From: a virus
Lineage: Duplodnaviria; Caudoviricetes
Length of the DNA: 64,000 nt
Virus record (IMG/VR): IMGVR_UViG_3300014204_000113
Span: 1 to 64,000 of that record
Strand: one strand, 5' to 3'
Shown: positions 11,589 through 45,484 of the stretch, piece after piece
Layout: every line of letters starts with the position of its first letter
How positions within the stretch are numbered: position 1 is the stretch's first letter
Made by a program: the position numbers and the translations under genes
The notes under the pieces: generated by a model
What the model was told of the DNA's origin: nothing
Databases searched by the model: none
Seen by the model: only the letters and a program-made list of their open reading frames with translations

Positions 11589-11617
11589 CCTTTAATTGAC
11601 AAGGAGAATAAAACAAA

Positions 11618-11905
11618 ATGAATTTACCCACGATTGACACCTATGGCAATTATTCAAGCGGCAATTATGGTGCTCATTGTCTCCGCGTTGACTTTGACAA
11701 TTTAACTTTGTGGTATTCTTACAATACCATCGTAGCCTTTCGCGGCGGTGAATATGGCCGCGTAGTACGTCAAAATGACTGGGGTCCGACTACTGGCAAA
11801 CATTTAAATGCGATTGACGGCGGCGAGAAGTCTTCTCGTATCCCAGGAGAAAAGTTTGAAAAGATGCTTAACGAAACCTTAAAGAAATTAGGGTTAAGCA
11901 ATTAA
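11618..11905 (+). CDS. conserved phage hypothetical protein
   Basis: WYSYNTIVAF..WGPTTGKHLNAID motif; RBS. Confidence 0.75.
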   Translation: MNLPTIDTYGNYSSGNYGAHCLRVDFDNLTLWYSYNTIVAFRGGEYGRVVRQNDWGPTTGKHLNAIDGGEKSSRIPGEKFEKMLNETLKKLGLSN

Positions 11906-12153
11906 TGGAATTTATCATCTATCGCACAAGTGGCGGCGGCGCGCCTTTGTGGTACAATGAGGATGAAGAAAGAACCGATAAACCTTGTAAAAATGCTTAT
12001 CCAGACGTTATAAAAGATGAAAATGATTATGATATTCATCTTTGGAAAATCAAGATTGATAATCTTGACGAACTTATGAACCTTAACCAAGAAGTCGGCG
12101 CTTTAATTTTGAGAAAAGACAGCATAGAAATTTATGATTCATATCGCGAATAA
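11905..12153 (+). CDS. hypothetical protein
   Basis: start overlaps upstream stop; IEIYDSYRE C-terminus. Confidence 0.7.
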   Translation: MEFIIYRTSGGGAPLWYNEDEERTDKPCKNAYPDVIKDENDYDIHLWKIKIDNLDELMNLNQEVGALILRKDSIEIYDSYRE

Positions 12154-12368
12154 AAGGAGGATTTAACGCAATGCAACCTTATTTAATTTTATATCAAGAT
12201 ACTCGCGGAGAATGGAAAACCTCTCGATTTTGGGATTATGAGAGATTTATGGAAAATGTGCGCTTTATGTGCGCTAACCCAAAAGATTATAAAAACGTGA
12301 CTACTTATCGAATTTCAAGAGAAAAATAACTATAAATTTATAAAAGAATAAAAGGAGGGTTTAAGGAT

Positions 12369-12572
12369 ATGGCGGAACACCCGTTAAAAGGCGCATTTAA
12401 ATTTGATGATCCTGGCCTTGATGAAATTAAACTTGTCAAACTGGATAAAGACAACGTTATCTTAGCAATCCAAAATAACATTCAAGTTAAAGCCAATTTA
12501 AACTTAACTAAACAAGAGGCTTTGAAACTGGCCGCTCAGCTTATGTGCGCTTTTGATTATGATGAAGATTAA
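12369..12572 (+). CDS. hypothetical protein
   Basis: GGAGG RBS. Confidence 0.65.
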   Translation: MAEHPLKGAFKFDDPGLDEIKLVKLDKDNVILAIQNNIQVKANLNLTKQEALKLAAQLMCAFDYDED

Positions 12573-12775
12573 ATAAAAGGAGGGATAAAATTTTGAAAAT
12601 TGGAATACATAAAGCACATAATCGTTACCCATATATTCTACATTATTGGTGGCCGCGTTGGTTAAATACCATTTCTTACAAAGAAGCTGGTTTTAAAATT
12701 TATAAATGGTTATGGTTTTATATCTCATTCAAGAATAAAGATTAACTTTTAACTTACAAAAGGAGGTTTTAACAA

Positions 12776-13033
12776 ATGCAAGACCCTAAATATATCTGCA
12801 TAGATTCATATATCGGCGGTCCTAAATATTTTATCTTCCCGGCCCATATTGAACATTCAGAATTTGCCAAAAAACTTTTGGGAGAAAAAGATAAAGTAAT
12901 TAGCGCCGGCTTTGTTTGTATTAATGATAATAAATTTTGCCCTTATGGAAATTCACATAGCCTCAAAGTTTCATGTGCCGAAGATGATAAAAGGATAATG
13001 AATCTCCAATTCGGAATTAAAATTGACGATTAA
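12776..13033 (+). CDS. conserved phage hypothetical protein
   Basis: RBS; H..SAGFV..CPYGNSHSL motif. Confidence 0.7.
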   Translation: MQDPKYICIDSYIGGPKYFIFPAHIEHSEFAKKLLGEKDKVISAGFVCINDNKFCPYGNSHSLKVSCAEDDKRIMNLQFGIKIDD

Positions 13034-13145
13034 AAAATTAATTTTGCAAAAGGCTCATTTTTCGCTTGACAAAGGTTTTTCTATCGTGGTAATATTCACC
13101 CATCAACTAGGCAAAGCCTAGACATTAAAGGAGGACAAGAAATTT

Positions 13146-13526
13146 ATGAGCAAACAAACTTTTGAAGAGGCTTTTTGTCAAATAGACGCTCATTATAAAA
13201 ACCAAATTTTAGCCGAAACTTGGGGTCATTTAGCGCCAAAGAAAAACAAATTATATAAAGGGTCTATTTTATTCGCTATAGGTTGTTATGGTGATGATCC
13301 TCTTAACCCCACAATCTTACATTGTGAATTTGATGGTTTAAATGATTCTCCTTGGTTTTTCGATTCTTTAATGGAATTTTTAGATAAATCAAATCAAGTA
13401 AGTTATGACAAAATGGAAAGGATTCAAAACTTTAAAGTCGGCAATGTTTATCAATTCGATGGAACTTTCAAAAATTATGTTTTTAAAGGGTCATTTCATC
13501 AATTAAAACTCGAAAACAACACGTGA
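13146..13526 (+). CDS. hypothetical protein whose 3' end overlaps the TnpB1 guide
   Basis: promoter and RBS upstream; ends KLENNT with the stop codon supplied by the element end. Confidence 0.7.
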   Translation: MSKQTFEEAFCQIDAHYKNQILAETWGHLAPKKNKLYKGSILFAIGCYGDDPLNPTILHCEFDGLNDSPWFFDSLMEFLDKSNQVSYDKMERIQNFKVGNVYQFDGTFKNYVFKGSFHQLKLENNT

Positions 13527-13590
13527 ATGTTCCCTTATAAATCTAAGGGCTTTCAGAACGTAAGTTCAAAGACTGCATTCCCAGTCTTAA
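13503..13590 (-). ncRNA. TnpB1 omegaRNA core scaffold plus guide
   Basis: three hairpins and AACATTCAC end conserved with the other two copies; guide = 13522 downwards (GTGTTGTTTTCGAGTTT); 5' boundary unknown. Confidence 0.75.
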
Positions 13591-14661
13591 AATATTAAAA
13601 GAGGAATTGAGGTCACGGTCTATATGCAAGCCACAAACAGGACAATCATAAATTCTATCGGCAAGAGTGAGTTTTTGCCTATTCCCACATTTATGACAAT
13701 CTCGGCTTGTATAGGCCGGATTGACTTTAACAAACAACCTACCGGCACTTTCAGCCTTGTAGGAAAGTTTATTAAAGAACCCAGACCAAGCCGCATCCGC
13801 AATACTTTTTGCAAGATTATGATTTTTAACCATTCTAGTAATAGTCAAATCTTCAACGCAAATTATTCCATAATTATCAACAATTTTTCTAGATTCTTGA
13901 TGAATGAAATTTTCTCTTTTAAATCTTATTCTTTCGTGAATCCTAGAAACGACTTTCTTTCTTTTAATTCTTTCTATAGTTCCTTTTTTAGTTTTGTCAA
14001 ACCTTCTTTGAATTCTGACAAGTTCTTTTTCTTCATTTCTAAAAAACTTAGGATTGTTAATAGAAGTATTATCAGAAAGAACAGCAAAAGATTTAATACC
14101 TACGTCGATTCCAACCTTATTCTTGTTAAATGGAAGAACTTTTCTTTCAACTTCACAAATAAAAGTCACATACCATTTTCCAGTATGGGAACGTTTGATT
14201 GTGGCAGTTTTTGGTTTACCTTCCAATTTTCTGTGTTGTTTAATTTTAATATGACCGATTTTATCAACAACCAATTTCTCATTTTTAATTTGGCAACCTT
14301 TGGGAACTTGCGGGAAGGTGATAGAATCATAATTCCCTTTTCCTTTAAATCTTGGATATCCAGGTTTGCCACCAGATTTAACTCTTTTAAAGAAAGATTT
14401 GAAAGCGAAATCAACTCTACTATTGACATTCTGCAAAACAGCAGCATTAATAATTTTAAAATTTTGATGGAATCTTTTAAGACTTGGCAACAATTTTTGT
14501 TGAATTTTAAGATTAAGAGAAACCCCTTGAATTTCCCAAGCATATTTCCTTTGTTCCAAAAGTTTGTTATAAAGATAACGACATTCTTCAAGAGTAAATT
14601 CCAGAAAGGATGTTTGGTGTTTAGTAGGATAAATCCTAAATTTGAAAGTTTTCATAGTCAC
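13543..14661 (-). CDS. tnpB: RNA-guided endonuclease TnpB (IS200/IS605 family), copy 1
   Basis: KTFKFRIYPT HTH, GYPRFK, RuvC GIDVG / VEDL / DRDLN, CHKC..CPVC Zn finger; likely start GTG 14661 or ATG 14655. Confidence 0.95.
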   Translation of the reverse strand: MTMKTFKFRIYPTKHQTSFLEFTLEECRYLYNKLLEQRKYAWEIQGVSLNLKIQQKLLPSLKRFHQNFKIINAAVLQNVNSRVDFAFKSFFKRVKSGGKPGYPRFKGKGNYDSITFPQVPKGCQIKNEKLVVDKIGHIKIKQHRKLEGKPKTATIKRSHTGKWYVTFICEVERKVLPFNKNKVGIDVGIKSFAVLSDNTSINNPKFFRNEEKELVRIQRRFDKTKKGTIERIKRKKVVSRIHERIRFKRENFIHQESRKIVDNYGIICVEDLTITRMVKNHNLAKSIADAAWSGFFNKLSYKAESAGRLFVKVNPAYTSRDCHKCGNRQKLTLADRIYDCPVCGLHIDRDLNSSFNILRLGMQSLNLRSESP

Positions 14662-14667
14662 ATCTAG

Positions 14668-14719
14668 ATTATAACATTTTGAAAAAGGCAGCGCAAGGTA
14701 AGAGTTCAAATTTTTGTAC
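14668..14719 (-). promoter_or_regulatory. tnpB1 promoter with upstream palindromic operator
   Basis: minus strand GTACAAAAATTTGAAC..TTGCGC..TGTTATAAT, 6 nt before GTG (leaderless-like). Confidence 0.7.
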
Positions 14720-14836
14720 CGAGAAAGAAAATAATTGAAAATAATGGAAGAAAATTGAAAATAATTCTTGATTAATACTTGCAAATAACATAAAATCTAA
14801 TTACTTAACTTGTCAAAGACAAGGCGTTAAAGGAGG

Positions 14837-15595
14837 GTGGAAATTGTGAAAAATTATCAAGAAGCGTTAGAAAAACTAGAAAAGCGCAGTTCTCGTAAGT
14901 TAGAGAATCATACCTATCTTATCCACTACCACGAAGCCAAACCGCATTACATAGGCGTCCGCCTGCACAATACCGACGTTGTGAAATATTACCCGGATGG
15001 GCGCATTATCCTTAATTCCGGCGGCTGGAAAACACCCACCACAAAAGACCGCATAAACAAATATGCGCCGGTGAATGTCTGGACCGATAAAGGAATTTGG
15101 TATATCGGCCAAAACTGGAATAAGCCAGCCGAAGCCATTTATCAAGATGATATGGTTATCAATCCCGATGGTACTTTTTCCGGGGTTATGACTATGAAGC
15201 AAGCCAAAGAAGAAACCAAACTGCGCGGCCAAGTAAGGAAATATGCAAAAGACTTTTTGACCGCTTTAAAAGCTGGCAAAATTCCCATGCCGTCAAGCGG
15301 CGATTGCTGGTATTGTTCACAAGTAGTTTCTTCACCTGATGTTTACAAGGGGCAACCTTTAGGCGAAGTTATGAAAGATAAAAATCATATCCTTTCTCAT
15401 ATAAAAGAAAAATATTATGTCCCTTCCCTGGCCATGAATGCCCTTGAAGCCTTTGGCGCAAGTATGGCCGCAAAATCAACCTTATGGTTTTACATGGGGC
15501 ACGAAAACGCTAACGACTGGGGAGACTTCGCCCTTGAGCAAATCGAAAAGGGCATCAAAAAGTATGTTTACCGGGAATTGGGTTTGGCTTATTAA
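14837..15595 (+). CDS. conserved phage hypothetical protein carrying a recoded TnpB1 target-like site
   Basis: GGAGG RBS; RKLENHTY..LHNTDVV..LNSGGWKTPTTKDRIN. Confidence 0.85.
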   Translation: MEIVKNYQEALEKLEKRSSRKLENHTYLIHYHEAKPHYIGVRLHNTDVVKYYPDGRIILNSGGWKTPTTKDRINKYAPVNVWTDKGIWYIGQNWNKPAEAIYQDDMVINPDGTFSGVMTMKQAKEETKLRGQVRKYAKDFLTALKAGKIPMPSSGDCWYCSQVVSSPDVYKGQPLGEVMKDKNHILSHIKEKYYVPSLAMNALEAFGASMAAKSTLWFYMGHENANDWGDFALEQIEKGIKKYVYRELGLAY

Positions 15596-15605
15596 GGGGT
15601 AAAAT

Positions 15606-15797
15606 ATGAATCGTAAACATTTGAAAAAGATACTTAAAGATTTAATGAATGATTTTAATATCCCTCTTTCTGAATTTTTATACGCTCTTTCTGAATTGTG
15701 CGGAGAAAAGGCAGATAAAAGTTTAGGAATTAAAAATCAATTTCTTAAATTAGCCGAAACTGAAATAAAGGCATTGGCAAACAGAACTAAAATATAA
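15606..15797 (+). CDS. hypothetical protein
   Basis: AAGGGG RBS. Confidence 0.6.
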   Translation: MNRKHLKKILKDLMNDFNIPLSEFLYALSELCGEKADKSLGIKNQFLKLAETEIKALANRTKI

Positions 15798-15813
15798 AAG
15801 GAGAATTTATCGA

Positions 15814-16605
15814 ATGAATGACACCGAAAAAGTTTTAGCAAAAATGCTTAAAGAAAATACCGGAATTCATTTTCTGGATTCAGGCGGCGCTTATGGTAGT
15901 AATTGGGAAAATAACCAGAAAAGAAATTTTGACAAAGAACCGGCAACGGTTTTAAGTTTTGACAATGGTGAAATATCTGTTACTCACAACGTCTATCACT
16001 TCTTGAAAGAACATTTAACCTTTGACAAAGATATGGATAAAAGATTTCATAAGTGGGCCAAAAGACCGGCACAAAAAAATGAAAATTGGCTTACCCTTAT
16101 AGAACAATTCCCATTAACCTTGAAAGGCTCTGGTCTTTATGGTGAAGGTTCGCCCATTACCGTCAATACCTATAATGGGAATGATTTACTATCCCAAACT
16201 ATTCAATACGTCTATTTTGAGTATCAAGGTTTGACTTATGTCCTCTTGCAAATTCATGGCGGTTGTGATGTGCGCGGAGGATATACCAAGCCGCGAGTAT
16301 TTCAAACCGATGAATATTTTCTTTCCTCAAATGCAGATGCAACCATTTATTGTCAAGGCGGGGATGATCCGCGGCAAAAGGCTTTGACACCGGACCTCGA
16401 ACCCAAAAGGCATTACTGGCGAACAGATGATGGTTATAATTGGTATTTTGAAGGGTCCACGGAAGGGCCTAATCTTGAAACCTTTCCCATTGTGGAAGAA
16501 AGTGAATTGGAAGAGGGGGAAAGACCGGAAAGATTTATCTTGGTAGACGCTGAGGGAAAAGGCCATTGTCCTTTTTGTGGTGGCCTTTTAGAAGCATTTT
16601 TCTAA
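15814..16605 (+). CDS. conserved phage hypothetical protein
   Basis: ENTGIHFLDSGGAYG, NTYN and LQIHGGCDVRGGYTKP motifs. Confidence 0.85.
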   Translation: MNDTEKVLAKMLKENTGIHFLDSGGAYGSNWENNQKRNFDKEPATVLSFDNGEISVTHNVYHFLKEHLTFDKDMDKRFHKWAKRPAQKNENWLTLIEQFPLTLKGSGLYGEGSPITVNTYNGNDLLSQTIQYVYFEYQGLTYVLLQIHGGCDVRGGYTKPRVFQTDEYFLSSNADATIYCQGGDDPRQKALTPDLEPKRHYWRTDDGYNWYFEGSTEGPNLETFPIVEESELEEGERPERFILVDAEGKGHCPFCGGLLEAFF

Positions 16606-18845: not shown

Positions 18846-19169
18846 ATGAATTTTGAGAACAGTTATCCTTATTCACAAGATGTAAAATTGCTCAAAGAAT
18901 TGAAGCTGGCCGCTTGGTCTGCAAAACACGGCGAAGAAAAGAAAATCGGCATCGTGGTTTGTGATGAATCAACGGTTGAAATTTTCGTGACTTGTTATCC
19001 GGCGCAATTTTACAAATTCATTATCAAAATTGGTTTAAAAAACTATGATACAGATATTATTTCTCGCCAGATTTATGAAATGACAACTGGGTCTGGTGCA
19101 TTGTCTGACTACTGGCCTATGGCTAAAGCCATTGCTGAAAATATGGTGGTTATCAAGGAAGTTTCATAA
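18846..19169 (+). CDS. hypothetical protein
   Basis: RBS present. Confidence 0.7.
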   Translation: MNFENSYPYSQDVKLLKELKLAAWSAKHGEEKKIGIVVCDESTVEIFVTCYPAQFYKFIIKIGLKNYDTDIISRQIYEMTTGSGALSDYWPMAKAIAENMVVIKEVS

Positions 19170-19189
19170 AAGGTTAAATTATCGCATAT

Positions 19190-19273
19190 GTTCAAAAATT
19201 TGTACTTTCTTCTAAAAATAATTTTCAAAAAGTGAAAATAATTCTTGACAAGTTGATTTGAATAATTTAAGAT
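19190..19273 (+). promoter_or_regulatory. operator plus sigma70 promoter cassette
   Basis: GTTCAAAAATTTGTAC then AAAATAATTTTCAAAAAGTGAAAATAATTCTTGACAAG; similar cassette at ~31959, ~36680 and, without the operator, ~58598. Confidence 0.7.
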
Positions 19274-22758: not shown

Positions 22759-22845
22759 TTTTGCTGGCACGGCGAATCGTGAATGTTCTGTCTAAATTCA
22801 GACAGCTTTTTGGATATTATCCAAAGACTCCATCCCGAGTCTCAA
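22759..22845 (-). ncRNA. TnpB2 omegaRNA core scaffold plus guide
   Basis: hairpins and AACATTCAC end at 22779; guide GATTCGCCGTGCCAGCAAAA. Confidence 0.75.
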
Positions 22846-23916
22846 TATGTTAATTGCAGCATTATGATCTCTATCTAACACTAAACCACAATGAGGGCAA
22901 GAATGTATTCTGACAGACAAGTCTTTATCAACAATTTGACTGCAAGAAGAACACTTCTTGCTAGTGTTTCGAGGATTAATGAATATGACTTTTCTACCAG
23001 CATATTCTGCTTTGTAGACGGTCATATTCATAAATTGATTCCAAGCAACATTACCTATAGATTTTCTAATCCCTTTGAAAGATTTATCTTTCATTTGTTC
23101 GATATTCAATTTCTCAAAAACTATGATTTGATTCTCATTCACAATTCTTCTAGACAATTTATGGGCAAAATCGATTCTTTTGTTTACAATCTTAGAATGA
23201 ATCTTAGCAACAATCTTTTTGAGTTTATTTCTTTTAAAAGAGCCTTTTTTCTCTTTACTGAGTTTTCTCTGACATTTAGTAAGTTTGTCTTCACTTTCTT
23301 TAAAGAATCTAGGATTATCAACTTTCTCACCATCAGAAAATGTTGCAAAGTTGATAAGACCGACATCAATTCCAATAGATTTGTCAATAATAGGCAATTT
23401 AATATTTTCAACTTCACAACTAAAACAAGCATACCATTTGCCGGTGGAATCTCTTCCGATAGTAAGTGTCTTAATTTTTCCTTCAGTTGGTCTATGTTGT
23501 TTGATTCTGACAGAGCCAATTTTAGACATCTTAAGTTTGTTGTCAACAAGTTTAAAACCATCTTGAGTAAATGTAAAAGAATTATATCTGTCATAACCTT
23601 GAAATCTTGGATATCCTGGTTTGTCACCAGATTTTATTCTTCTGAAAAAAGATTTAAAAGCTTTGTCAAGCCTGTCTTGTGCATTTCTAAGACAATGGAT
23701 ATGAATATCTTTAAGTTCTGGTTTGGTTTTTCTCCATTCTGGGATAAACTTTTGAGTGTCATACAAACCAAGACTTTTCTTTTCTTCTTCCCAACTCTTT
23801 TTGCAAACTTCCAAAGTCTTATTATATACCCATCTGCAACCATCAAGATAAGATTGCAAAGATTTCTTCTGTTTGGAAGTAGGATAAATCCTGAATTTAA
23901 ATGTTTTCATGCTCAT
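22798..23916 (-). CDS. tnpB: RNA-guided endonuclease TnpB, copy 2
   Basis: GIDVG / FEKL / DRDHNAAINI intact RuvC triad; CSSC..CPHC. Confidence 0.95.
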   Translation of the reverse strand: MSMKTFKFRIYPTSKQKKSLQSYLDGCRWVYNKTLEVCKKSWEEEKKSLGLYDTQKFIPEWRKTKPELKDIHIHCLRNAQDRLDKAFKSFFRRIKSGDKPGYPRFQGYDRYNSFTFTQDGFKLVDNKLKMSKIGSVRIKQHRPTEGKIKTLTIGRDSTGKWYACFSCEVENIKLPIIDKSIGIDVGLINFATFSDGEKVDNPRFFKESEDKLTKCQRKLSKEKKGSFKRNKLKKIVAKIHSKIVNKRIDFAHKLSRRIVNENQIIVFEKLNIEQMKDKSFKGIRKSIGNVAWNQFMNMTVYKAEYAGRKVIFINPRNTSKKCSSCSQIVDKDLSVRIHSCPHCGLVLDRDHNAAINILRLGMESLDNIQKAV

Positions 23917-23922
23917 GTCTAG

Positions 23923-23973
23923 ATTATAACATATGGGAAAAATAATGCAATAGAAAAGTACAAAATTTTGTAC
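23923..23973 (-). promoter_or_regulatory. tnpB2 promoter with perfect palindromic operator
   Basis: GTACAAAATTTTGTAC (23958-23973)..TTGCAT..TGTTATAAT. Confidence 0.7.
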
Positions 23974-23995
23974 TAGAGATAAGGAGGCGAACTAA

Positions 23996-24226
23996 ATGAT
24001 TTTGTTTAAAGTGGTTTTCTGTTGGCATGGTGAAAGCCATATTTTGTATTCTCATGCTGCCAATGAAACCAAGGCATTTCAAAATTGCTGTGTCCAGTTG
24101 GCAAAGAAATTGGAATATTCGGCAAGCGCGGTTAGAAACTATTTCAGGAATTCGGATAGGTATGAAATTACAAAGGAGAAAAATAATGTTAAACGAATGG
24201 TCTGCCGAAATAATGTGGCCGAATGA
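23996..24226 (+). CDS. hypothetical protein carrying a recoded TnpB2 target-like site
   Basis: AGGAGG RBS; MILFKVVFCWHGESH. Confidence 0.75.
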   Translation: MILFKVVFCWHGESHILYSHAANETKAFQNCCVQLAKKLEYSASAVRNYFRNSDRYEITKEKNNVKRMVCRNNVAE

Positions 24227-31958: not shown

Positions 31959-32045
31959 GTACAAATTTTTGTACCCTCTTGAAAAAATAATTTCAAGAAA
32001 GCGAAGAAATTTCTTGACAAGCCAACCATAAAAATTTAAGATAAT
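31959..32045 (+). promoter_or_regulatory. operator plus promoter of the ubiquitin-like operon
   Basis: GTACAAATTTTTGTAC..AAAATAATTTCAAGAAAG..TTCTTGACAAG. Confidence 0.7.
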
Positions 32046-35447: not shown

Positions 35448-35479
35448 AAAATTGGGAGAATCATTTGTATATTTGTATA

Positions 35480-35567
35480 TTTGTATATAAAAATCAGTGG
35501 TGAATGTTCTATCTAAAGTCAGACAGCTTTTAGAACCAAGTTCAAAGACTCCATCCCGAGTCTTAAA
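35480..35567 (-). ncRNA. TnpB3 omegaRNA core scaffold plus guide
   Basis: hairpins and AACATTCAC end at 35500; guide CACTGATTTTTATATACAAA. Confidence 0.7.
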
Positions 35568-36637
35568 ATATTAATCGCGGCATTGTGATCACGATCAATA
35601 ACTAAATTACAATGAGGGCAAGAATGAGTTCTAACAGACAACTCTTTATCAACCAAGTTATAACATCCAGAACACATCTTGCTGGTGTTTCTTGGATTTA
35701 CGAAGATTGTTTGTCTACCAGCATATTCTGCTTTGTATTTAACAAAATTCATAAATTGATTCCAAGCAACATTACTTATGGATTTTCTAATTCCTTTAAA
35801 GGTAGTTTGTTGCATACTTTTAATATCAAGTTTTTCAAAAACTATTATTTGATTTTCATTTATGATTCTTCTGCTGAGTTTATGTGCAAAATCTGTTCTT
35901 TTGTTTGTGATTTTAGAATAAATTTTAGCAACAATTTTCTTGAGTTTATTTCTTTTTCTAGAACATTTTTTCGCATTAGAAAATTTACTTTGATATCTTG
36001 CAAGTTTCTGTTCAGATTCTTTGAAAAATCTAGGATTAGGAATCTTCTCGCCATCAGAGAAAGTAGCAAAAGAAACAAGACCCACATCAATACCAATAGG
36101 TTTCTCAATATTTGGCAAAATATTCGTTTCAACTTCACAACTAAAACATGCAAACCACTTGTTTGTAGAATCTCTTCTGATAGTGAGAGTTTTAATCTTG
36201 CCCTCAATATTCCTATGTTGTTTGATTCTAACAGCGCCTATTTTAGACATCTTCAAAAACTTATCTTTAATCTTAAAGCCGCCTTGAGTAAATGTGAAAC
36301 TATTATACCTATCATAACCTTGAAATCTAGGATAACCGGGTTTATCGCCTTTCTTAACTCGTCTAAAGAAAGATTTAAAAGCTTTATCAAGTCTATTTTG
36401 TGCATCTCTAAGGCAATGAATATGAATATTTTCAAATTCAGGTTTTTCTTTTTTCCATTGAGGCAAAAGATTATAAGTATCATAAAGACTAAAACTTTTC
36501 TTTTCTTCTTCCCAGCTTTTCTTTCTAGTTTCAAGCGTTTTGTTGTAAATCCAGCGACAAGAATCAAGATAGGCTTGCAAAGATTTTTCTTGTTTACTAG
36601 TAGGATAAATCCTGAATTTAAAAGTTTTCATGCTCAC
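35519..36637 (-). CDS. tnpB: RNA-guided endonuclease TnpB, copy 3
   Basis: GIDVG / FEKL / DRDHNAAINI; close paralogue of copy 2; start GTG 36637 or ATG 36631. Confidence 0.95.
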   Translation of the reverse strand: MSMKTFKFRIYPTSKQEKSLQAYLDSCRWIYNKTLETRKKSWEEEKKSFSLYDTYNLLPQWKKEKPEFENIHIHCLRDAQNRLDKAFKSFFRRVKKGDKPGYPRFQGYDRYNSFTFTQGGFKIKDKFLKMSKIGAVRIKQHRNIEGKIKTLTIRRDSTNKWFACFSCEVETNILPNIEKPIGIDVGLVSFATFSDGEKIPNPRFFKESEQKLARYQSKFSNAKKCSRKRNKLKKIVAKIYSKITNKRTDFAHKLSRRIINENQIIVFEKLDIKSMQQTTFKGIRKSISNVAWNQFMNFVKYKAEYAGRQTIFVNPRNTSKMCSGCYNLVDKELSVRTHSCPHCNLVIDRDHNAAINILRLGMESLNLVLKAV

Positions 36638-36643
36638 ATCTAG

Positions 36644-36760
36644 ATTATAACATATGGAAAAAGACAATGCAAGCTAGTAGTTCAAATTTTTGTACTGAGG
36701 ATGAAAATAATTTGGTTTGAGTGAAAATTTTTCTTGACAAGGTGATTTTAATGATTTAAT
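36644..36760. promoter_or_regulatory. divergent promoters sharing one operator (36680-36695)
   Basis: minus-strand TTGCAT..TGTTATAAT for tnpB3; plus-strand TTGACA cassette for the second E2 operon. Confidence 0.7.
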
Positions 36761-36793
36761 ATGAACTAAGAAATTGATTTGCAAGGAGGTTTA

Positions 36794-45431: not shown

Positions 45432-45484
45432 GGTACAAAAATTTGAACTTTTGTCTTGCACTAAGGATTTCTAAATTCTATAAT
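45432..45484 (+). promoter_or_regulatory. operator plus promoter with the same architecture as the tnpB promoters
   Basis: GGTACAAAAATTTGAACT (identical to the tnpB1 operator)..TTGCAC-N17-TATAAT. Confidence 0.7.

Follow-up and report, generated by a model that had tools for sequence, protein, structure and literature searches.

A phage tnpB gene lodged in the start of a conserved gene has the layout of a possible RNA-guided homing cassette

Introduction

The TnpB nucleases of IS200/IS605 elements of the ISDra2 type bring about restorative homing, and their TnpA-independent spread in plasmids has been described (10.1101/2023.03.14.532601; PMC8612924; PMC11870625). In T-even phages the endonucleases SegF, SegG and Mob are responsible for intronless homing and localized marker exclusion (reviewed in PMC13565253; also PMC10448857). 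The mORF elements of fungal mitochondria (Allomyces atp6; Glomus atp6, atp9, cox2 and nad3) import a foreign gene end of 64–81% nucleotide identity, in which most of the changes are synonymous, and the native end remains close to relatives (PMC3630166). The homing of TnpB into co-infecting phages is treated in a 2026 review as a theoretical possibility only (PMC13565253).

Here, a locus of an uncultured 188-kb phage containing a tnpB gene (tnpB1) is described from a window of 64 000 nucleotides, by which the whole stretch of DNA analysed is meant. The segment 13135–14905 is interpreted as a TnpB homing cassette inserted in the 5′ region of a conserved phage gene, an interpretation to which we would assign a probability of about one half. 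The features of the locus are listed in Table 1. No published description of a TnpB cassette with a displaced guide remnant and a re-spelled gene start was found.

Table 1. Features of the tnpB1 locus, in window coordinates
Feature	Position	Strand	Details
Native 5′ signals	13066–13134	+	Promoter TTGACA-18-TAATAT 13066–13095; 5′-UTR hairpin 13107–13121; RBS 13127–13134
ORF13146	13146–13526	+	126 aa; family with TWGHLAPKKNK motif; last codons form the guide flank
TnpB1 guide position	13506–13522	-	17 bases directly outside the right end; guide strand GTGTTGTTTTCGAGTTT
Right end and 3′ part of omegaRNA scaffold	13523–13680	-	Three hairpins, then AACATTCAC; overlaps the tnpB 3′ end
tnpB1	13543–14655	-	370 aa plus stop; full length
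tnpB promoter and left side	14656–14734	-	TTGCGC-17-TATAAT; AT-rich palindrome 14704–14719; 11 nt; ATAA 14731–14734
Replacement 5′ region of the 14846 gene	14735–14845	+	Promoter-like TTGATT-17-TAAAAT 14768–14796; hairpin 14809–14823; RBS 14831–14836
Conserved phage gene (14846 gene)	14846–15595	+	249 aa; weak PF23790 Kyano_Gp96-like N-terminal part; phrog_19389
Re-spelled first 24 codons	14846–14917	+	Codons 11–24 all differ from relatives; guide-homologous site 14897–14913 (KLENHT)

Results

TnpB1 and its omegaRNA

The product of tnpB1 combines the HTH_OrfB_IS605, OrfB_IS605 (RuvC) and zinc-ribbon TNB domains of a TnpB, with matches to PF12323 (4.8e-11), PF01385 (2e-21) and PF07282 (1e-22), and residues 2–360 were aligned with the TnpB of ISDra2 (8exa/8bf8; E = 3e-63). 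The RuvC D/E/D residues are kept, with GIDVG, VEDL and DRD aligned to the motifs of a solved TnpB-type chain, and to judge from these alignments the nuclease looks functional. The nearest homologues of TnpB1 are only 68% identical. Element copies share the end ...AACATTCAC and diverge beyond it, and the omegaRNA scaffold contains 12 pairs with compensatory changes among seven element copies. A search of Rfam with 13300–15000 gave no family match and no intron family, and the Y1 transposase TnpA (PF01797) had no match in the complete 187 988-bp genome, control genomes being matched in the same search.

The insertion block and alleles without it

The block 13135–14905 (1771 bp) is absent from relatives, which have 70 bp in its place, and contains ORF13146, TnpB1 with its omegaRNA, and a new promoter, 5′-UTR hairpin, RBS and start of the 14846 gene. 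Both ORF13146 and tnpB were missing at the locus in L004/L005, L006, L007 and L116. The left edge of homology to these tnpB-less relatives is position 13134, and the native signals that end there precede the 14846 gene in the relatives and ORF13146 here. A 2503-nt contig from run X3 links 13134 to 14906 through 70 other letters, in a run where cassette-bearing contigs without differences were also present, and in run X6 the loose ends of the naive allele fell at the same two places (13134, 14906). Cassette and naive alleles co-occur in one groundwater run, and the cassette sequence is identical across four independent assemblies. Between the window and L006, identity is 76–82% on the immediate left of the cassette, ~90% on its immediate right and 97–99% further off, and the phages are strongly mosaic around this region.

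No match was returned when 11600–16600 was compared by blastn with GenBank phages. A second phage lineage with an element at the KLENNT site was found in neither IMG/VR nor the JGI metagenomes, and in no IMG/VR sequence did a TnpB right end adjoin KLENNT, whatever its spelling. A single JGI metagenome match for the right end with KLENNT had neither tnpB nor the family gene and was discarded as a chance match.

The guide flank and its match to the adjoining gene

The 17 bases of the flank, AAACTCGAAAACAACAC on the + strand, are in frame with ORF13146 and read K L E N N T(AC). The original prediction held that this guide is a codon-swapped copy of a site in the neighbouring gene, and on re-reading the match itself was confirmed: the site at 14897–14913, AAGTTAGAGAATCATAC, reads K L E N H T in the frame of the downstream gene, and flank and site have 10 of 17 bases (7/17 positions differ) and five of six residues in common, all five complete codons being different. 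The copy relation stands, but its polarity is reversed, the flank having the ancestral spelling and the resident gene being the re-spelled copy. The start of that gene had been placed at 14837; the GTG at 14846, 9 nt downstream of AGGAGG and opposite the ATG of relatives in the alignment, is most likely the real start.

KLENNT is the family-wide consensus at codons 18–23 of the 14846 gene. The tnpB-less homologues, which had been proposed as the place to look, carry KLENNT encoded by DNA that is like the flank at 13–15 of the 17 bases (L007, 15; L004, L005 and L116, 14; L006, 13), and mismatches to the guide in the sampled tnpB-less relatives number two to four, guide position 3 among them. 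The exact 17-mer occurs in L014, a distant family member, at the homologous RKLENNT/YL site. The TAM-proximal half of the flank, AACAACAC, represents the most conserved residues of the gene family. These comparisons support the suggestion that the guide flank is a leftover of codons 18–23 of the adjoining gene in their un-recoded spelling.

The whole 188-kb genome, searched on both strands (376 kb), has no other site with fewer than three mismatches to the guide 17-mer. Among 119 ORFs of the window only the adjoining gene matched KLENNT at five or more of six residues, and the tail of one ORF matches another ORF at this level with an empirical frequency of 0.00135 per pair. A chance origin of the match is unlikely on these counts.

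The guide supplies the last codons of ORF13146 and the element end supplies its stop codon, as had been predicted: the TGA at 13524–13526 lies inside the right end of TnpB1, where GTGAATGTTC, which begins at 13523, is common to all three tnpB elements (alignment A1). The match would be coincidental if homologues of ORF13146 normally ended in KLENN, yet this was seen in 0 of 33 aligned homologues, which end near the same position with variable tails (e.g. RRLKLT, RRLKLL), none of them in KLENNT. ORF13146 is full length and not truncated. The residues KL are plausibly native to it, so the junction is probably inside AAACT, and the leftover of the gene start in the flank may be as short as ~11–17 bases. 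In other phages the homologues of ORF13146 are ordinary small genes that adjoin neither tnpB nor the family of the 14846 gene; as a single protein, ORF13146 had no match in IMG/VR.

The re-spelled start of the 14846 gene

The 14846 gene is intact and of full length when judged against its family. Its codons 11–24 form an unbroken series of differences from three relatives, which are identical to each other there, and identity is 56–60% in the re-spelled patch as against ~90–96% downstream. All 12 of the codons that can be compared for synonymous change differ (P = 1.5e-4, assuming independent draws from phage codon usage and with the codon window picked post hoc). Divergence runs as far as the guide-matching site and no further, and from 14906 onwards the sequence is again homologous to the tnpB-less contig. 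The replacement hairpin (14809–14823) agrees with the native one in loop and spacing and differs from it by two compensatory changes in the stem.

The resident re-spelled allele was not found elsewhere in IMG/VR. When 80 distant family loci were examined for an upstream tnpB, the only case was L021, which has a distant tnpB and a motif that is not comparable. As separate observations, P0054 is another KLENHT allele, and L006, from the same sample, has two seed changes, AAT CAT (N to H), in common with the resident gene. The 14846 gene is a widespread phage gene and the presumed target is its most conserved motif, as is typical of homing sites.

The left end and the TAM

The palindrome at 14704–14719 is the probable left-end hairpin, and ATAA at 14731–14734 (TTAT on the tnpB strand) could be the TAM and could mark where a classical element begins on the left. 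The promoter type of tnpB was also found ahead of non-tnpB genes, and the palindrome and the AAAATAATT motif were considered as possible phage promoter parts rather than left-end parts. Comparison of element copies suggests that the TAM of the TnpB1 clade is probably TTAT or TTTAT. The flank of the P0158 element (the 68%-identical TnpB of the relative phage G001) has a matching site in this genome, and that site is preceded by TTTAT, which also stands before the left-end hairpin of L124. The sequences of L122 and L123, copies of one bona fide IS, begin to agree at TTTTTAT, and in TnpB1, TnpB3, L004 and L006 a TTAT is found 11 nt from the palindrome on its outer side. GTAC, which precedes the exact-match site in L014, was dropped as a TAM on comparison with bona fide elements.

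The naive alleles have GGTAA or GGTAG beside the KLENNT site, not TTAT or TTTAT, and the Tyr codon at the place of the TAM cannot yield TTAT. Owing to the absence of TTAT and TTTAT beside the site in known naive alleles, their cleavage by TnpB1 is put forward as a proposal only.

TnpB2, TnpB3 and other elements

TnpB2, in the same window, has a layout like that of TnpB1, its flank being the native 17-codon start of gene 23996 with a re-spelled start on the other side. In the relative G001 the re-spelling of gene 23996 is limited to ~23 guide-matching bases, and the G001 orthologue of TnpB2 has lost the guide and the tip of the right end by a 52-nt deletion. Neither the exact target of the TnpB2 guide nor a degenerate version of it was found in IMG/VR. 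TnpB3 departs from the model: its block moved with its flanks, and its guide does not match the empty site. Among nine elements checked, the arrangement of a displaced remnant and a re-spelled patch was found only in TnpB1 and TnpB2, and it was absent from the contexts of the nearest TnpB1 homologues (L099, L121, L124, L125).

Discussion

Flank homology, insertion polymorphism, a sharply bounded patch, an intact nuclease with its omegaRNA, the lack of TnpA and the co-occurring alleles make up a layout such as would be expected of an RNA-guided homing element, and from this layout we infer cutting, TAM compatibility and homing. On the right-end side the cassette would have retained the native promoter, UTR and RBS, now serving the passenger ORF13146, and what is left of the displaced gene start, its final 17 bases, would lie exactly where the omegaRNA guide is templated. 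The other side brings a diverged promoter, UTR hairpin, RBS and first 24 codons, and the 14846 gene therefore stays whole. The guide would thus carry the spelling of the naive alleles, and between guide and resident allele 7 of 17 positions are different. During co-infection the TnpB–omegaRNA complex would cut naive 14846 alleles at the conserved RKLENNT/Y site, and the rival genome would receive ORF13146, tnpB and the replacement gene start when the break is repaired by recombination with the cassette-bearing genome. Heterology would then end at the cut site, matching the observed edge. We suggest, as a tentative extension, that the locus could be a natural phage RNA-guided gene drive, composed of a TnpA-less TnpB, a displaced-start guide, an immune replacement start and a passenger, with resistance alleles in the co-occurring tnpB-less relatives.

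The locus could instead be a classical IS200/IS605-type insertion concerned with maintenance only, an account that we regard as rather unlikely. TTAT would have overlapped the stop codon of ORF13146, the guide would act only on genomes from which the element has been lost, by destroying or repairing them, intact alleles of the neighbouring gene would never be cut, and the KLENNT likeness and diverged start would be by-products of older recombination or of partial duplication at a mosaic boundary. The likely TAM (TTAT or TTTAT) is in keeping with this, as is ATAA at 14731–14734, which follows a left-end-like palindrome with the spacing seen in other copies. If TTAT is the TAM, the precise empty site becomes ...KLENNT(ACA) TAA, an ordinary end for a gene, so that the local sequence also agrees with a classical insertion behind ORF13146; the strong mosaicism around the region and the TnpB3 block, an example of such units travelling with their flanks by recombination, also speak for it. 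However, it leaves unexplained the position of the element exactly between a displaced and a re-spelled copy of one gene start at two separate loci, the end of the diverged stretch at the guide-matching site, and the confinement of the re-spelling of G001 gene 23996 to guide-matching bases, and the genome has no TnpA for excision, although a host TnpA is possible.

A cassette that arose by homing may also have since become a relic, with TnpB1 cutting nothing useful and the guide a fossil, or with the protein in another role, e.g. regulation. Such decay does occur, as the 52-nt deletion in the G001 orthologue of TnpB2 demonstrates, and mismatches to the guide in all sampled naive alleles and a promoter type that also precedes non-tnpB genes point the same way; nevertheless we consider a relic improbable, given an intact TnpB1 with its catalytic residues, an omegaRNA scaffold conserved with covariation, at least 17 guide bases kept although ORF13146 replaced the rest of the displaced gene start, and a cassette identical in four independent assemblies. 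That the tail of ORF13146 resembles the motif of the neighbouring gene by chance is very improbable. K, L, E and N are common residues in an AT-rich phage and KL agrees with the tail of the ORF13146 family, but tail matches at five of six residues occur at 0.00135 per ORF pair, in relatives the site agrees in six of six residues and in as many as 15 of 17 bases, nothing below three mismatches was found in 376 kb of the phage's own sequence, the match falls on the edge of the re-spelled stretch, and the pattern is repeated at TnpB2.

If the guide does cut naive alleles, phage TnpB proteins would be programmable homing endonucleases. The homing cassette proposed here, if correct, would mean that TnpB can spread without a transposase, leaving the landing gene unharmed and dragging passenger genes between co-infecting phages; it would join TnpB restorative homing, phage intronless homing and the mitochondrial mORF elements, help to account for the frequent occurrence of tnpB without tnpA in large phages, and supply a case from nature of a drive that brings its own rescue and in which resistance alleles can be seen. 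As the guide, its target allele and the immune allele are known, the layout of TnpB1 lends itself directly to experiment.

TnpB1 resembles the ISDra2-type TnpB of IS200/IS605 elements (10.1101/2023.03.14.532601; PMC8612924; PMC11870625) in protein family, with a full-length match and D/E/D, in a guide templated just outside the right end and in a homing logic whereby the guide recognizes the element-less allele. Unlike that system, it is found in a genome without TnpA and inside a gene that has a replacement start; the resident allele is distinguished by re-spelling and not just by the presence of the element, the copied unit would include a passenger gene, and the TAM beside the presumed target differs from that inferred for the clade. 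TldR (10.1101/2023.11.30.569447; PMC13418256) is likewise a phage TnpB relative beside a gene copy, with a guide that matches another allele or homologue, but TldR has lost the RuvC residues and represses transcription, whereas D/E/D is retained in TnpB1, whose guide has its match in a coding site of related phages. IStrons (group I intron with TnpB; PMC10690162) also place a TnpB element within a gene without destroying it; an IStron, however, is in sense orientation and is spliced from the mRNA, while tnpB1 is antisense, has no intron family match and leaves the gene whole by means of the replacement start.

The likeness to the free-standing homing endonucleases SegF, SegG and Mob of T-even phages (PMC13565253; PMC10448857) extends to a nuclease gene between conserved genes and absent from relatives, a presumed target in the adjoining conserved gene of the nuclease-less relative, a resident allele that differs by substitutions, flank divergence that is higher near the element, and both alleles in one sample. 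The differences are that recognition by TnpB1 would use a guide RNA templated beside the gene, not a protein, and that the gene start is physically present twice, once as a displaced remnant and once as a replacement. With the mORF elements (PMC3630166) the locus has in common a nuclease gene that arrives with a diverged, mostly synonymous copy of the displaced gene end, a native end that is left behind and is close to relatives, and an intact hybrid gene, which is also what was found here. It differs from them in that the TnpB1 cassette replaces the 5′ end together with promoter, UTR and RBS, that the nuclease is RNA-guided and that the remnant doubles as guide template. From these comparisons we read the TnpB1 cassette as an RNA-guided counterpart of the free-standing homing endonucleases and of the fungal mORF elements.

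tnpB genes and the right end

The record is a complete virus genome of 187,988 bp with direct terminal repeats, of which the window covers the first 64 kb. Three tnpB genes were identified in the window, all on the minus strand amid plus-strand phage genes. TnpB1 possesses all three Pfam domains, aligns end to end with ISDra2 TnpB and retains the three catalytic motifs; the 3' scaffold of the omegaRNA comprises three hairpins, with 12 pairs exhibiting compensatory change among seven element copies. No Y1 transposase is encoded in the whole genome. Alignment of the three elements demonstrated a common right end (...GAACATTCAC) beyond which the copies diverge, and as the last base of TnpB1 is 13523, the guide position is the adjoining 17 bases (the flank).

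Each of the three tnpB genes has, on its opposite strand, an open frame of 343-347 aa aligned to its codons; the frame stays open because TTA, CTA and TCA are nearly absent as sense codons from tnpB (2, 0 and 0 per gene against ~19 expected). For a cyanophage/Anabaena tnpB, a 2026 preprint describes an ORF of 347 residues on the reverse strand, supported by peptide evidence (10.64898/2026.02.14.705889).

Features of the tnpB loci (positions in the window unless stated)
Feature	Position	Strand	Remark
TnpB1	13546-14655	-	tnpB
TnpB2	22819-23910	-	48% identical to TnpB1
TnpB3	35537-36631	-	48% identical to TnpB1
Reverse open frames	13624-14667, 22891-23922, 35612-36643	+	antisense to the three tnpB genes
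Flank (guide position)	13506-13522		final codons of ORF13146
Resident site	14897-14913		in the 14846 gene
Native promoter, UTR hairpin, RBS	left of block		now upstream of ORF13146
Second promoter-like site	14768-14796		inside block, beyond tnpB
Second hairpin	14809-14823		inside block; loop and spacing as native hairpin, two compensatory stem changes
RBS and first 24 codons of 14846 gene			inside block, beyond tnpB
TnpB2 element	22779-23982
TnpB2 mini-ORF	22728-22778
Gene beyond TnpB2	23996-24223
TnpB3 block	35455-36770
Palindrome and AAAATAATT without tnpB	31959-31974, 45433-45448; genome 78463-78478		at promoters

The flank and the resident site

The original prediction, that the guide of TnpB1 is a codon-swapped copy of a site in the neighbouring gene, gave sequences, frames and counts that were correct on rereading. 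The flank encodes KLENNT, the stop codon TGA being supplied by the element end; the resident site encodes KLENHT and matches the flank at 10 of 17 bases, all complete codons being different. The downstream gene carries the site as described, but its start is most likely not 14837 but 14846, where a GTG lines up with the relatives' ATG. Among the window's 119 ORFs, none other than the downstream gene matches KLENNT at five of six residues (such tail matches occur at a background rate of 0.00135 per ORF pair), and the phage's own 188 kb contains no other site with fewer than three mismatches to the 17-mer.

The downstream protein is one of a large phage family (163 protein-search matches and 279 relatives in IMG/VR stretches), in which R-K-L-x-N-N-T-Y is among the best-conserved parts; the nearest homologues of the protein carry KLENNT. 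The locus was compared in four contigs of close relatives (L004/L005, from the 189-kb relative phage G001; L006; L007; and L116). In all of these only an intergenic region separates an 85-aa gene, matching 12776-13033 of the window, from the 14846-gene homologue, and neither ORF13146 nor tnpB is present at the locus. These tnpB-less alleles match the flank at 15/17 bases (L007), 14/17 (L004, L005 and L116) and 13/17 (L006). In L014, a distant member of the family, the homologous position carries the 17-mer without a mismatch, and many of 80 IMG/VR members match at 14-16 of 17 bases, the best-conserved half lying on the right-end side (AACAACAC). Given these matches, and no closer site in the phage's own 188 kb, the flank is a copy of the 14846-gene site in its ancestral spelling. 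The predicted homology is thus upheld by the spelling of the relatives, but its polarity is reversed, the ancestral spelling belonging to the flank.

In the right-end half of the site, tnpB-less L006 (3363-3379) reads AAT CAT (N to H), as does the resident gene; the family consensus and the other relatives read AAC AAT. L006 comes from the same sample as a cassette-bearing assembly. The shared triplets could mark an escape allele; alternatively, they could stem from a short conversion tract.

ORF13146 is itself a complete member of a small phage protein family with variable C-terminal tails. The match would be coincidental if its homologues ended in KLENN regardless of tnpB; none ends in KLENNT, and those in other phages adjoin neither tnpB nor the 14846-gene family. 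From the family pattern ...L-x-L, 'KL' may be ORF13146's own, so that the junction probably lies within AAACT. In L097 (3809-4190), a near-identical assembly of the same phage from JGI sample 3300037067, ORF13146 is called as 51-aa and 49-aa pieces; from this split call, the passenger gene may be disrupted in some members of the population.

The insertion block and the re-spelled gene start

Homology with tnpB-less alleles extends up to 13134 (the RBS end) and resumes from 14906, blastn and contigs agreeing, so that 1,771 bp of the window stand where relatives have 70 bp. From codon 11 to codon 24 the resident gene differs without interruption from three relatives, which do not differ among themselves in this stretch. 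Nucleotide identity to relatives is 56-60% over codons 11-20 and ~90-96% over most of the remaining gene; across the first 78 bases the resident gene matches relatives at 55/78 and is as distant from them as a homologue with 59% protein identity (59/78). Of codons 11-24, 12 are synonymous-comparable, and every one of these differs (P=1.5e-4, assuming independent draws at phage codon usage, for a codon range picked post hoc). The cassette recurs at 99.8-100% identity in three other assemblies, one from the JGI sample of tnpB-less L006, and the public groundwater run X3 yielded both cassette-bearing contigs and a tnpB-less contig. The guide-position remnant, the insertion polymorphism and the bounded re-spelled patch are considered secure.

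The TnpB2 and TnpB3 loci

The TnpB2 layout, as read from its sequence, is the same. Its right-end flank is a 17-codon mini-ORF (MPNEILYKGSFCWHGES), a native gene start in native context, whose start overlaps the upstream gene's stop and whose own stop is supplied by the element end. On the far side an RBS precedes gene 23996, which starts MILFKVVFCWHGES in codons different from those of the mini-ORF. G001 has lost the guide and right-end tip here; its copy of the 23996 gene has 11 bases identical to the window's remnant, then differs over only ~23 guide-matching bases. TnpB3 has a clean empty site in G001 at about 109413-109418. Its block carries 45 guide-side bases with three copies of TTTGTATA and, on the other side, an 85-base outward promoter module, and its guide has no match to the G001 empty site. 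Such units thus move with their flanks by recombination. At 19172-19219 the window carries a remnant resembling the tnpB promoter and palindrome, at the place of a complete tnpB element in G001 (L004); ORF 18846-19169 stands there in the window instead.

Homing or maintenance

The layout is plausibly the expected outcome of a break at a naive (tnpB-less) guide-matching site repaired from a cassette-bearing genome. A double-strand break would fall at the guide-matching site of the naive allele and repair would be templated by the cassette-bearing genome; heterology would extend from the first left homology, in the RBS region, to the target, and all between would be copied, the passenger gene included as well as the gene start of the donor itself. 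The donor's gene start would have to differ from the guide, because the donor would otherwise cut itself.

Alternatively, the guide may serve classical maintenance only, the duplication being of other origin. The main weakness of the homing model is the TAM, the motif beside the guide-matching sequence, which in the clade of TnpB1 is probably TTAT or TTTAT. A G001 element of TnpB1 type (P0158, 68% identical to TnpB1) has its flank-matching site in the present genome preceded by TTTAT, a related phage element has TTTAT upstream of its left-end hairpin, the sequences of two bona fide IS copies from a single MAG begin to agree at TTTTTAT, and TnpB1, TnpB3, L004 and L006 have TTAT 11 nt outside an AT-rich palindrome resembling a left-end hairpin. 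With TTAT as TAM, the precise empty site would be ...KLENNT(ACA) TAA, a normal gene end. At the TAM place naive alleles read GGTAA or GGTAG, TTAT being impossible there because a Tyr codon follows, and those of sampled relatives carry 2-4 guide mismatches. TnpB1 may tolerate other TAMs, or the sampled naive alleles may be resistant ones.

The left end is also uncertain. The palindrome GTACAAAWWTTTGWAC lies beside all tnpB genes and also upstream of non-tnpB genes; with AAAATAATT it occurs at tnpB-less promoters, of which those at 45433 and 78463 are of the TTGCRY-17-TATAAT type, as for tnpB. Such palindromes could be solo left ends that came to serve as promoters, or else a phage operator that the tnpB cassettes took up. 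Owing to the probable TAM missing from naive alleles, the guide mismatches and the uncertain left end, functional homing is placed at about even odds, while the homology within the original prediction is supported by the relatives' alleles.

The flank of the P0158 element (L099 4001-5148) is, by translated frame, the inner part of a putative Pyr_excise-like gene, which is whole in the present genome (183,870-184,420, outside the window); G001 lacks ~400 bp comprising a small ORF and the 5' part of this gene.

Comparison with known systems

Literature searches found no published description of a layout of the TnpB1 type, and in a 2026 review the homing of TnpB into co-infecting phages figures as no more than a theoretical possibility (PMC13565253). 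Free-standing phage endonucleases follow the same logic of intronless homing as the model proposed here (PMC13565253). The mORF elements of fungal mitochondria, which bring a foreign gene end, mostly synonymously diverged, and leave behind the native end, close to relatives (PMC3630166), are a close precedent for the TnpB1 gene patch, but in the TnpB1 cassette the displaced piece doubles as guide RNA template. The cassette would thus unite TnpB homing, intronless homing and gene-end replacement of the mORF type.
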